Source of the DNA: Octopus vulgaris
Taxonomy: Eukaryota
Assembly: GCA_951406725.2 (NCBI GenBank)
Contig: OX597840.1
Span: 38,998,001-39,062,000 of the forward strand
Length of the DNA stretch: 64,000 bases
Reading direction: 5' to 3'
Shown here: positions 3,831 to 53,314 of the stretch, one piece after another
Numbering within the stretch: position 1 is the stretch's first letter
How the letters are laid out: every line of letters starts with the position of its first letter
The notes under the pieces: model-generated
Database searches by the model: none
Told to the model about the DNA's origin: nothing
Seen by the model: only the letters and a program-made list of their open reading frames with translations
Made by a program: the position numbers and the translations under genes

Positions 3831-6800
3831 CGTCAGCACCATTAATATTGTTGATAATGAAGATGGTTATTATGATCATGATCATGATGGGGATGATGAT
3901 GATATCTTCCTTTTGCGGTGTTCGTCAGTAACAAGTGTCCACTGCCAACCGCGTTTTAACAAAACATGCTTTGTAACTGATATAGGAAAACCAACTTTAC
4001 AATCACTGATATTTCAGTCAGCCGGTTGATGAAAGAAAAACCAAAAACTTGTTATGTGCAACAAAATCAGTATTAACTCAAAACAGTAATAAGAGTATAA
4101 TTCTTGATGCAAATATGCCAGGGAAATCGACAGCGGTATTCAACCTCAACTAATATCCCCGATATATGGTCATCCATAAACACCGCATCTTTTTTTTTTT
4201 TACATAGTTACTGATATATTTTAGTGTTATTTATCACTGCACATGTACAATAGATAGATATTCACTGCTGACGAATACCACTGCGTGTGTGGCTTTCAAT
4301 GTGTATCTGCACTGAGTATCATACTCAGATTGCTGATTGAAACTGATACTGCTTCGCTTCAGTTGCAAATAACAATATACATAAATGCATGCATAAATAA
4401 ATACATACATGCATACATTCACATACACAAACACACACACGTATAAGTAATTATGATGTTTCGAGAGGAACTGAAATAATTCTATTTTGGAATAGTGAGG
4501 TTCGAAGCACACAAGGCTATATGTAATAGCATCAGGTGGCCTCCACCCATTTTTGTCCCAATAGGTTTTGTTTGTAATCCAATGTCTGCATACTATTAAG
4601 ACAGCGAGGTGAAGGAATCTTTAGCATAGCGTACAAAATGCTTAGCGGCATTTTGTCCGTTCTTAATCTGAGTTAAAATGACGCCGAGGGCGATTGTGAA
4701 TTTCGGAATCGATAAAATGTGAACCACTCATGTACTGGGGTCGATGTAACCGGACTCGTCCCATTTTCTTGCAGTTGCTAGACTTGGGCTACAATATTAA
4801 GCTAATATTTACATAGTATTGTTCACCGTTTTATGGGAATCTAGATCCACTGCACAAAAAAAAAATACTTAAATAAGTGTGTGCGTGTGTGTGTGTGTAT
4901 TCAGTTCTGTTTCTTTTCAGTTTCCAACAATATATAAAGTTTATATATTCCTTATTTTCTTTAATACATTCTACTATTCCGTCAAAGTGTAAAAGTACTT
5001 TTACTTGTGTATCGGCATAAAACGGTTAGACAAATTCACTTTATTGTACTTGTTTACGACTAGAATTTTGTGGCCTGCAGCAATGAGTAGCATGTGTGTA
5101 TTATATACAGAAGTGATATGAGCAGGAATGTGACTTGTCTATAGATACAGTAGGAATTATTGATCAAAATAACGTTTACTCCATACAATACATGGAAAAT
5201 AATCTGGCGCTGTCGCCTATATCTGTTAATCAAACCAGAAACTCTTTTTAAAAGAACATATGGAAGGAAGAATAATTTTATGATGGAATCAGTTTGCGCT
5301 GCAAACGGCCTTCATTCCAACGAAAAGCTTTATCGTTCGTTCATTCAGTCGTGTAGTTAACTAGTCATCCGGGCGTTTGTTATAATAAATATCAAGAGAA
5401 CCACACAGCGATGTTTTCTTTACTATGTAAACATGTGTTCCATAATACTTGCCAACATGGTTCCAACCAAACAAATTAAAAGAATAAGGAATAAAAAGCA
5501 AGCATTTTGGTATCATGAGCAGCTGATTAAAGAAACTTTTACAACTGCACGTCAGTTCATTTCGTTGTATTTGGATACATAATTCCACAGTCCGTTTTAA
5601 GTCTATTATTGTAGAATAACAGAGAGCAGATTGCCTCTATTAATCATACGACATCGATCTAAGGATCATTAGCTCGCTTTGAGCTAATGAAGGGGCCACT
5701 GGGAAAATACTCAATCACGCACACATACAAAATAAAGAAGAAATCAACACAGCAGCCAACCTTCTATCAAATCCCCCATGACCTTTCTACATAAAGATGT
5801 ATTCAATATCGTTCTCCCTTATCATAAAGGGAAATACGTGACAGTCGCTGCTGGAACACAATTGATCGCAGGTCTTCTAGGAATCGACCAGAGCTGACCT
5901 ATAAACTAAACCACGGCAGCAACAACAATAACAACGACACAATTTTCTGCTGCATTTTAAGTATATTCAATACACAGCAACGTTGTACACTTAATCTTCA
6001 TTGAAAAGCTCGGATCGTAGATTCTTTCACGTCCATTCGACTCACATCTTCGCCAGCCACTTTACTCATGTAAAAATATTGACACGTTTCGGAGAACTGA
6101 AATTAAATGTAGGAATATGGATGAGGGACAAACAACTAATGTCGTAGAATTATTTGACAATATATATTGTGTCGGAAAATGAGATTAGATGAACGACATA
6201 ATTAGACTTGTAAATGAACGGCCTTTTCCTCTTCTCCATCGATATATTTATGTATTTGGAGTAGAGTGTGAATTAAATGCGTTAGTTAGTTATGAAGTTA
6301 AGCCTCCCGGGGAACTCTACTACAGGACAATAATCTATGGTAGATTACAATGAGTTGGAAAAATGAAGAATACTAACTTGTCGCGTATATTTCTCTCCAT
6401 GTATATTTATATACATTTGCGCAGGAACACACACACAAACACAGCACATTGACATGCGCACTAACATCATGCATAAAGAAACACACTTTCGCCATTTTAT
6501 ATCAGAATTGTTCATGCTTGGCAATGAATTGATTTGAGAGTCTGTGTTAAATCGGAAGTAATTATGACGTAGAAAGATATTATACCGAAATGTATAAGTG
6601 CTTCTTTCATTATTTGGAAAGAATCTACGCCATAATTGTAAAAGTTTTTGTGCGTTTATGTCTAATAAAAGGCTCATCAAGAATTTTGTGATGTAAACGC
6701 AATATAAGTCTGACAAAGCGTGGAACCACTGGTTCCAAGAAAGGAAATAGGGAGGGGGGCATAGGTCCCTAACTGAAGTTACAGGGAAGATTGCGTAATA

Positions 6801-50113: not shown

Positions 50114-51482
50114 GAGAGGGAGAGGGAGAAAGAAAGAAAGGAAGAAAGAAAGAAAGAAAGATACGCATATATATTAACGGTCTTAAAATATCAATCCTTA
50201 AATAATCTATTTTTCTCCTCTCCTTTTTCTCTGCTCTTTCCGTATATCACTGTGACACGGATGTCTTGCCCCTTATTGTTATTCGCAAACTTGATTACAT
50301 ATCTACTGGAATGTGTCTTATCGATTTACTACCATTTCTGTGTGTGAAGATGTATGTATATTTTCATGTATGTATATATATATATATATATATATATGCA
50401 CGTATTTATGTATGTATGTAGAATATATCTAAGGCCCATCTTTTCACTTTCCGTTATATGAATGATATTAGCATTTTTATTACGGTATCGTTCTCTCCTT
50501 TATCTTTTCGCTGCCGATGTTTCAGCCCGAGGTATTTCCAAGCTATAATGCTTCAGGCACCATACGTAACCTTATAAATGTATTTTTTTTATATTCCTTC
50601 GCATTATTACTCTTTCAGCTTCTTTTTTTATCGCTAGATAACTTTAAATGCTAACAGGTCACACATCAACAAGAATACATATTCAACAGCTTTCTAGCCC
50701 ATAATTTCCTTGTATATTTCAGCGCTAAAATATTTGCATTCCCAATTTAATCGTCTTATTTAAATATAAAGTACCTATTAAACAATCACTAAAGTTTGGC
50801 GATGCTTTTTAAGGATCGAATCAATGTATGCCTTTATTATACAACAAAATGGATGACGTTTACATTATTTGATATTATAAGATGCATTATATTAAAAATA
50901 GCGAAAACTAAAATGAATGTCATTTTTATTTAAGGTTTAACGTAAACTGTCAAGAAATACGTATGAATGATAGAAGCCAAAATTGAGGCGTTATTGTATA
51001 CTTTAAAATTTACCATCCCTTAATGTGCTCCTTAAGTTTTAAAGATCATTATATTGATGGGATTTTTATTAATAGCATTTCTGCCTTTCTCCCATAATTC
51101 CGTTTAGGGTACCGCAGTGATTCTATATGGTGGATTTTTTTTAGAGCCACTTAAGAATGCGATGAAATTTTGAAATCAATCTTTAGTTAATTTCTGAAAT
51201 TGTTCCATCAAGAATGATCATAATTTTTGGACAGCAGATCTGGTGGAAATGCCAAGTCGATTACTGTTACCCAAGTGCAAAGCTGGTATATATATCTCAT
51301 CGACCGCGAAAGGATACATGACAAAGTCGACTTCGGCATATAAACTGTCCACTTTTAGTGGTCAGTCCTCTAAATTTTGTATGTAAAAAATATTTATCTT
51401 CGGATTTTTTTTAAATATGCTAAGCCACTGGTTTTAATTGATTAATATCAATTTCTACCCTTTTTAAATTTTATATATATAC

Positions 51483-51555
<73 letters not shown>

Positions 51556-51651
51556 TTCAGCAAAAATTTAGATTCAAATGAATATGGTACTTAATTTAGA
51601 TGCACCAGAATTCTGTATGGTGTTATCCATGAAAATCCGTGGGGTGATTAT

Positions 51652-51772
51652 AATCAAAATAAGCAACAAGAATGACTCCGGTAATTTGGTACGATCGTTT
51701 CGTACATAAGATGATGTAGTACAAAACGATCGTACCAAATTACCGGAGTCATTCTTGTTGCTTATTTTGATT
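51652..51772. repeat. Fold-back hairpin (54-bp arms, 13-nt loop) containing the 3' half of a hammerhead
   Basis: Arms 51652-51705 and 51719-51772 differ by one mismatch. Minus strand reads GTAC-loop-GTAC-GAAAC-GATC-GTA. Confidence 0.9.
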
Positions 51773-51895
51773 TTATATATATATATATATGTATATGTAT
51801 GTATGTATGTATATATATATATGTGTATATGTATGTATGTATGTATATATATATATATAAATACATACGATATATATATATATACGATATATGTA

Positions 51896-52788
51896 CGAGG
51901 TTAATCCCAAAAGTAAGATCTCCAAAACGCTGGGGACCCAAGGAAACTGTGCGTGCGGCCACTGGCAGAACTGTTGTGTTTGTTGCGCATGCGTCTGCGC
52001 CTGCACCTGTGCGCTCCTTACTGCCACATTCAATCTTGGTTTCGCAGTCGTATCTGATGGACCTCCCGACTAACGCTAACACCAGATGTGAAGTTCGCGC
52101 AGTTATTCGGTTTTTTAACGCAAAATGCATTAAACCGATTGAAATTCATCACCAATTAACGGAGATGTATGGTGAATCTTGCATGGGTGTCAAAAACATC
52201 CCCGCGAGGTGTAGAGAGTTTGCAGTTTGTCGTACTAAAGCCGGCGATCATTAATTTCTGACGAAACAGTCGCGAACGTTGAGCAAATCATGCGCGAAAA
52301 TTGACGGATCACTCTGGATGATCTCCGCATGTTGGTTCCTGAGGTTTCACGAAGCACCATTCATAGGGTTTTGAGTGAAAAGTTGCAATATCGGTAGGTG
52401 TGCGCAAGTTGGATTCCACGAATGCTCACAGAAGAGCATTAATGGCAACTTGGACTTGTCAACAAGTGACTACCACCTCTTCCCTAAGTTAGGCCGGAAC
52501 GCTCTTTAAACGCCGACGAGGTGAAAGGTGAGGTTCAACGTTTTCTCAATGTCATGGTGGTGGGGTGGAATGACATGTGCATACAAAAACTACCCCATCG
52601 CCTACAAAAACTACCCCATCGCCTACAAAAACTACCCCATCGCCTACAAAAACGCATCGACCGAAAAGGCGATTATCTAGAAATATAGATAAATATTCAA
52701 ACTTTAAAATGATATAAACATCATTGACAATAAACGTTTCGGTGATATCTAAATATTGCTGGAGGCCTTACTTTTGAGATTACCTTCG
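51896..52788 (+). mobile_element. Internally deleted mariner transposon (pseudogenised transposase)
   Basis: TIRs CGAGGTTAATCCCAAAAGTAAGATCTCC / GGAGGCCTTACTTTTGAGATTACCTTCG with TA at both ends. Peptides EVRAVIRFFNAK...IEIHHQLTEMYGE, VCASWIPRMLTE, DYHLFPKL and KGDYLE. Confidence 0.9.
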
Positions 52789-53314
52789 TATTTATCTTAT
52801 TAGAAATTATATTCAACATATTTACATATATTTTCATATAAATATAAATTACTTTATAAAACACCAAGAAAGAATTCTAAATGTTTAATCTTTATTTATT
52901 TTATTAAACATTTATCAAAATTTTTCATACACAGAAATATTTTCACCCTTAATTTATTGTTCCACTAAAGAGATTATATCAAAACTTAAGAATTCACTTG
53001 AAAATATGAAGATTTAGTCCGTTTTATCATACATATAATTAATGAATTATAAATTAGATTGTTTACACAGATTTGTATCTATTATTCTGCGAAGATTGTC
53101 AAAACAATTTTATATGAAATTTTTAGTTATTTTTTCTGTTCATCGTATGTTTATGTGTGTGTTGTGTAGACGCCCCCAGACGATGAAGTAGACTAGCCCA
53201 ATAGGTAGATATAGAGGGAGAAGTGTTAGACTTCACCAGAGCAGTAGCAGGGTAGAGTAGCAGTCGGAGATAGAGAGTCGAGTTGAGTAGAAGGCATCCG
53301 AAAGTGCGCCATAA

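Follow-up and report, generated by a model that had tools for sequence, protein, structure and literature searches.

Inverted ends of a Penelope-like retrotransposon in Octopus vulgaris: junctions across the family favour two primed cDNAs and gather beside a predicted hammerhead cut

Insertions of EN+ Penelope-like elements (PLEs), as described in excerpts of PMC8557442 and PMC3846280, share with the octopus family analyzed here a head-to-head, 5'-truncated inverted copy and a tail at one end only. The relevant passages of PMC3846280 describe an inverted pLTR with an optional tail, as well as palindromes at the junction, which also occur in octopus and were interpreted there as self-priming. 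How PLEs build their tandem and inverted ends is called undefined in a passage of PMC8557442, and the role of the PLE hammerhead is presented as open in an excerpt of PMC11167929. Pairs of PLE hammerhead motifs on opposite strands, 100-700 bp apart, are noted in a section of PMC4209133. According to parts of PMC11167929, a Penelope-like protein cuts and extends both strands in vitro, with two reverse transcription starts that bracket the tail, while a portion of PMC11371274 reports for R2 that the cDNA snaps back before the junction forms.

The hairpin under study lies in a 64-kb stretch of Octopus vulgaris DNA (the window) and consists of two 5'-truncated copies of one Penelope-like element end, placed head to head in a TA repeat (Table 1). 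Its arms, 51652-51705 and 51719-51772, are complementary at 53 of 54 positions around a 13-nt loop, with a single C/A mismatch at 51701/51723, and an equally good DNA fold (z = -16.4) was reached by none of 200 shuffles. Positions on the element are given on the ruler of one copy, L007 (window position = 52258 minus reference position), where the hammerhead core occupies 491-497, stem II 498-556 and the predicted cut 568/569, which in the window copy falls between 51690 and 51689. The tailed arm is truncated at the 3' GTAC of stem II and differs once from the family majority; the short arm has two private substitutions. Each arm holds bases missing in the other (13 in the short arm, about 96 in the tailed arm), so neither was wholly copied from the other. 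In full-length copies, the tail continues into the ORF.

Table 1. Coordinates of the window hairpin, its parts and its flanks
Feature	Position	Strand	Remarks
(TA)n target microsatellite, left flank	51472..51552	.	
Tailed arm	51554..51705	-	final 152 nt of element end, reference 553-704
Tail, ~96 nt	51554..51648	-	on one arm only
CCGG palindrome	51678..51681	-	reference 577-580; not used as turning point in window copy
Hammerhead 3' half	51685..51705	-	stem II 3' strand 51705-51702; GAAA 51701-51698; palindromic stem III; GUA 51692-51690; stem I 3' strand
Head-to-head junction	51705..51706	.	microhomology 0; inserted bases 0
Hairpin loop, 13 nt	51706..51718	+	reference 540-552 in sense orientation; belongs to short arm rather than loop II
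Short inverted arm	51706..51772	+	reference 540-606; stops at family's second fixed end
TA/TATG microsatellite, right flank	51774..51895	.	

A preliminary description of this DNA had reported the fold-back and spelled out its minus strand, and both hold: 51722-51685 reads GTAC-13 nt-GTAC-GAAAC-GATC-GTA-CCAAA. The GAAA, the GUA triplet, the short palindromic stem III and the stem I 3' strand are all genuine hammerhead parts. The apex had been taken for stem II, yet the true strands of stem II lie about 49 nt apart in intact copies, and the upstream GTAC (51722-51719) is an inverted copy that mirrors the downstream one because GTAC is self-complementary. Since the 13-nt loop is a sense copy of the bases preceding the family's 3' GTAC, it is part of the inverted arm, which thus starts at 51706 and not, as had been supposed, at the place of CUGANGA. 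The window copy retains only the 3' half of the hammerhead, its CUGANGA and true stem II being absent and its apparent stem a mirror, and is consequently predicted to be inactive. Its junction has neither microhomology nor insert, so that it shows no fold-back itself; with the loop in the short arm, the earlier reading of this copy as a stem II snap-back is not supported. Parsing the junction as a 2-bp fold-back plus a 3-nt slip is possible but weak. An Rfam search of the 64-kb window returned no match reaching the gathering score. Taken by itself, the window copy is a dead fragment of an ordinary kind.

Several other features were seen in the window. About 900 bp at 51896-52791 lie between imperfect inverted ends (~28 bp) with TA outside and hold a decayed transposase-like sequence, which we take to be mariner-like; inside this interval a 21-bp unit is repeated three times (52579-52653). 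A loose hammerhead-like pattern match at 52258 is probably due to chance, and two more such matches fall at 3836 and 63524 on the minus strand.

A search of the window's genome (2.8 Gb) gave 951 candidates; the 40 of these that were scored are 98-99% identical, and in nearly all of them the match begins at the second GTAC. By walking upstream through real copies we reconstructed an element in which an RT frame and an Asn-rich insert are accompanied by a C-terminal GIY-YIG domain and a long 3' region. The RT frame is of the YRDD type and matched Atlas RT clusters at 0.94-0.97; Pfam and PDB did not identify it as an RT, the best PDB row being a maturase RT at E 0.15. The GIY-YIG domain was found by Pfam at E 2e-4, below the curated cut-off, and was also matched in Atlas. 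The closest named proteins are octopod (68-77% identity). In 10 copies the element end continues into the ORF start, a partial tandem that forms a pLTR with the hammerhead.

Judged by its motifs against the published description, the element appears to be a Hydra-clade EN+ Penelope-like retrotransposon. With that clade, as set out in excerpts of PMC8557442, it shares a C-terminal GIY-YIG without CCHH, a CxCX5C linker, a DKT motif, CxxC and CxH around conserved E and N, a hammerhead and (TA)n targets. Unlike the clade in those same excerpts, it shows RWI at the likely place of RWK, and it exceeds the usual length of <3 kb because of a 3' region of ~1.7 kb and the Asn-rich insert. The Neptune, Nematis and Penelope/Poseidon clades were rejected as assignments, since they have CCHH with two Cys between GIY and YIG and there is one Cys here. 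The Asn-rich insert is long, in frame and of (AAT)n type, and lies between the RT and the endonuclease (L153, L156, L159-L166, L170); N-rich inserts are described for rotifer Penelope families in a passage of PMC3846280. At 29.57-29.69 Mb of G000:C29 (L341, L343-L347), an element-bearing segment recurs about every 9 kb in a tandem segmental array.

Intact copies contain stem I, CTGATGA, stem II, GAAA, a palindromic stem III and GUA; the type I hammerhead of the family appears complete, and its stems covary. The CTGANGA and the upstream stem I partner that the preliminary description had anticipated in full copies are both present in the family. The CUGANGA core upstream of stem II is 96-99.5% conserved per position over 189-191 alignments, in which overlapping loci are counted repeatedly. 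In seven copies picked by hand from three subfamilies, 5 of 12 pairs in helices I, II and III change on both sides and 92.9% of cells are paired. Stem II is a long two-part hairpin whose 5' strand, GT(A/G)CT, directly follows CTGATGA, and an extended stem I is predicted by folding. Stem I and the core, the latter being CTGATGA or CTGAAGA, set apart at least three subfamilies (L017, L142, L185-L187, L247), and a second subfamily has its own palindrome past the cut, likewise a turning point.

The family has two fixed 3' ends adjoining TA, a short end with 229 exact matches and a tail end with 298. Our sample comprises the first 100 listed short ends and the first 100 listed tail ends (98 parsed), chosen by element end and not by junction, with segments of at least 15 nt kept. 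Among these matches, 83 junction loci were found, of which 16 were dropped (eight of another subfamily; eight complex, beyond the reference or spurious). One tailed and one short arm make up 63 of the 67 pairs scored among the matches listed, and 4 are arranged otherwise. It is exceedingly improbable that such a fold-back is an artefact of sequencing or assembly: the window arms differ in sequence, their flanks are not inverted, the inversion goes no further than the fixed short end of the family, the same plan is common to hundreds of loci, and contigs of other runs contain fold-back joints of the same family. Among the matches listed from four public runs no contig bridges the exact junction, which proves nothing.

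The two arms of a pair tend to end together. Among the 63 pairs from the matches listed, the ends lie within 15 nt of each other in 27, against 9.2 expected (permutation, p 5e-5), and within 30 nt in 32, against 14.3; five further pairs left the result unchanged (27 of 68 within 15 nt, 9.5 expected). In the 32 near pairs, again among the matches listed, the loop sits in the short arm 20 times, in the tailed arm 8 times and in neither 4 times. Microhomology in the 34 insert-free joins among the matches listed averages 2.65 versus 0.83, and is alike in near (2.5, n=22) and far joins (2.9, n=12; versus 0.8). Inserts of at least 4 nt contain a reverse copy of 9-20 nt of the arm end in about 9 of 22 cases (62-pair set, in which L091 and L213, separate loci with the same junction, count once), and these reverse copies are aborted fold-backs followed by a jump. 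Specifically, L034 has a fold-back at both arm ends, joined via a 4-nt palindrome; a short-arm fold-back or jump runs on into tail-bearing sequence in L015, L073, L115 and L235; and the clearest visible fold-backs (L025, L076, L084, L095, L113, L250) belong to the class with the longer tailed arm. As separate observations, a fold-back unit recurs about seven times in tandem at 2004-2767 of L120, and at L059/L060 the L059 short arm is present four times, which suggests repeated re-priming or slippage.

These pairs bear on a scenario that we consider very unlikely, in which a single cDNA begun at the tail end bends back and primes synthesis of the entire second arm on itself, the fold in the window copy being stem II. 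It would account for the coupling of arm ends and for the 11 copies known to be joined on stem II pairings (L003, L006, L028, L091, L201, L202, L204, L213, L266, L268, L313), and self-priming has been proposed from palindromes at inverted junctions in an excerpt of PMC3846280. However, the short arm is the longer one in 38 of the 63 pairs among the matches listed (shorter in 21, equal in 4), and in those 38 it reaches beyond the tailed arm, so that neither arm can have copied the other. Moreover, 40 of 100 short-type ends among the matches listed run straight into flanking DNA; lacking an inverted partner, these solo ends suggest that the short end is primed on its own. In 4 of the 11 stem II joins the loop belongs to the tailed arm and in 6 to the short arm; 1 is unclear. 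An exact-pattern search found four loci on the middle and four on the apical stem II register, L003, L028 and L313 being additional to these. Among the 63 pairs from the matches listed, 2 are joined on a stem II register and in 6 both arms end within stem II, and a test for enrichment of stem II over unpaired copies found none (Fisher p 0.32 and 0.79). For the window copy, whose junction is off the stem II register, a single self-primed cDNA is contradicted unless a later deletion is added. Of the earlier proposal, then, snap-back itself persists in the aborted fold-backs and the copies joined exactly on stem II pairings, and self-priming of the whole second arm does not; its expectation that breakpoints cluster at hairpins holds insofar as they are non-random, with no preference for stem II and a peak downstream of the cut.

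Palindromes that are long and perfect are unstable and pick up deletions at the centre. The main rival to two separately primed cDNAs is a perfect or stem II fold-back from which an asymmetric deletion of the centre later left the blunt junction; to arrive at the window sequence from an apical stem II join, one deletion on the tailed side would suffice. We nevertheless regard this history as improbable, because copy divergence is unrelated to arm offset (Spearman 0.10, p 0.44, n=62), in 11 of the 16 youngest copies of the 62-pair set the short arm is already the longer one, 15 CCGG palindromes survive with no loop at all, and the solo short arms are left unexplained.

The turning points themselves are concentrated near the hammerhead. 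The commonest single one is the CCGG palindrome 8 nt past the cut, on which 15 loci turn, although its search pattern differs in length from that for stem II and the counts are only roughly comparable. Tailed-arm ends among the matches listed fall at 569-582 in 15 of 63 pairs, versus 3, 1, 2 and 3 in neighbouring 14-nt bins; three of them end exactly at 569. A fine map of the window's subfamily was drawn from the first 100 of 193 matches, with 16 intact or duplicated rows dropped and a few ends moved by hand, and both arms of one locus may count in it. Among these matches, 35 of 84 ends lie at 575-584 (p 5e-6; 6e-4 without seven CCGG joins), whereas 569-574 holds 7 of 84, a background rate, with no step at the cut. 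The second subfamily was inspected by eye in the first 100 of its 216 matches, unfiltered for intact copies; here 10 of the 18 arms ending in 540-572 do so at 566-572 (p 0.0015). That bin was set once L206 and L220 had been seen, and these two loci account for 4 of the 10 ends. The centre of L206 (G000:C2:176796789-176796862) is a perfect palindrome exactly on that subfamily's predicted cut.

Such clustering would also be expected if both cDNAs from one RNA stop together, either by running off a 5' end that is ribozyme-cut or broken or by stalling at the folded ribozyme, with fold-back incidental; we hold this to be possible, if rather unlikely. Besides the end counts in both subfamilies and the L206 palindrome, it is favoured by subfamily alleles common to both arms at 66 of 72 sites in 13 loci, where 40 were expected from family frequencies and the sites are linked. 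Against it, the window's subfamily peaks past the cut without a step there, and cleavage is dispensable in vitro according to an excerpt of PMC11167929. Both window arms end upstream of the cut, which means that the template of this copy was uncut. A start of full-length copies at the ribozyme cut was likewise rejected, as none of 10 pLTR-ORF junction copies begins there. Cleavage, stalling at the extended stem I of the predicted fold and a GC-rich palindrome may each underlie the pile-up, and the data, which all three fit, do not separate them. A shared stop on the RNA is compatible with, and not exclusive of, two primed cDNAs.

We hypothesize that the hairpin probably arose from two cDNAs, one begun on each target strand at its own fixed start site, that were then joined. 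From the structure, the two fixed ends, the asymmetry, the microhomology and the aborted fold-backs seen in the copies, we infer an order of events and the enzymes involved. The alleles common to both arms, the solo short ends, the cutting and extension of both strands in vitro and the R2 snap-back also speak for this model. The element enzyme would nick both target strands, and the nicks would prime two cDNAs from the same source, whose fixed starting points on the element RNA lie about 96 nt from each other. The free cDNA 3' ends would be joined by microhomology-type repair, and one or both would often fold back, copy themselves, and anneal to or jump onto the other cDNA. Fold-back before joining would explain why arms often end nearly together and why the loop may lie on either arm. 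In the window copy, the short-arm cDNA would have gone 13 nt further than the tailed cDNA before a blunt join. Some observations weigh against two primed cDNAs: the 21 pairs with a longer tailed arm are explicable by a single cDNA folding back, gene conversion between arms could produce shared alleles, and later deletions at the palindrome centre could mimic either loop sign. Target-site duplications are unreadable in TA repeats. More tentatively, Penelope inverted ends in general might come from a single source RNA on which two cDNAs are primed at fixed sites, with the hammerhead setting the commonest turning point in vivo, the cut in one subfamily and the folded stem I in the other. If true, genomic junctions would be a record of the action in transposition of a ribozyme dispensable in vitro. 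More generally, the many junctions of this family, which speak for two primed cDNAs rather than a single self-primed one and whose ends pile up beside the ribozyme cut, make the inverted-end question testable, and the junction map is a modest addition.

Earlier publications already cover inverted ends, a tail on one side and self-priming, and the window unit is of a known kind. The arms of twin-primed L1 insertions do not overlap; unlike them, the octopus arms both copy the same sequence from two fixed starts, which results in palindromes. What the two have in common, going by an excerpt of PMC10760644, is a pair of priming events joined by microhomology, and in the snap-back of R2 described in a section of PMC11371274, cDNA 3' ends likewise use their own cDNA for priming before they are joined. 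The EN+ PLE tail of 30-40 bp given in a passage of PMC8557442 contrasts with about 96 nt in the octopus family. Priming on an antisense template is proposed in part of PMC3846280, whereas the octopus data point to two sense-templated cDNAs, and the passages of PMC8557442 and PMC3846280 concerned with these insertions are without junction statistics, unlike the octopus family map. With the minimal type I PLE-pLTR hammerheads in excerpts of PMC4209133, the octopus ribozyme shares the conserved core, a helix I of 4-5 bp and a short palindromic helix III suited to dimers. Those hammerheads are minimal, as that source presents them, whereas helix II in octopus is a long two-part hairpin, of which the window copy keeps the 3' half only.
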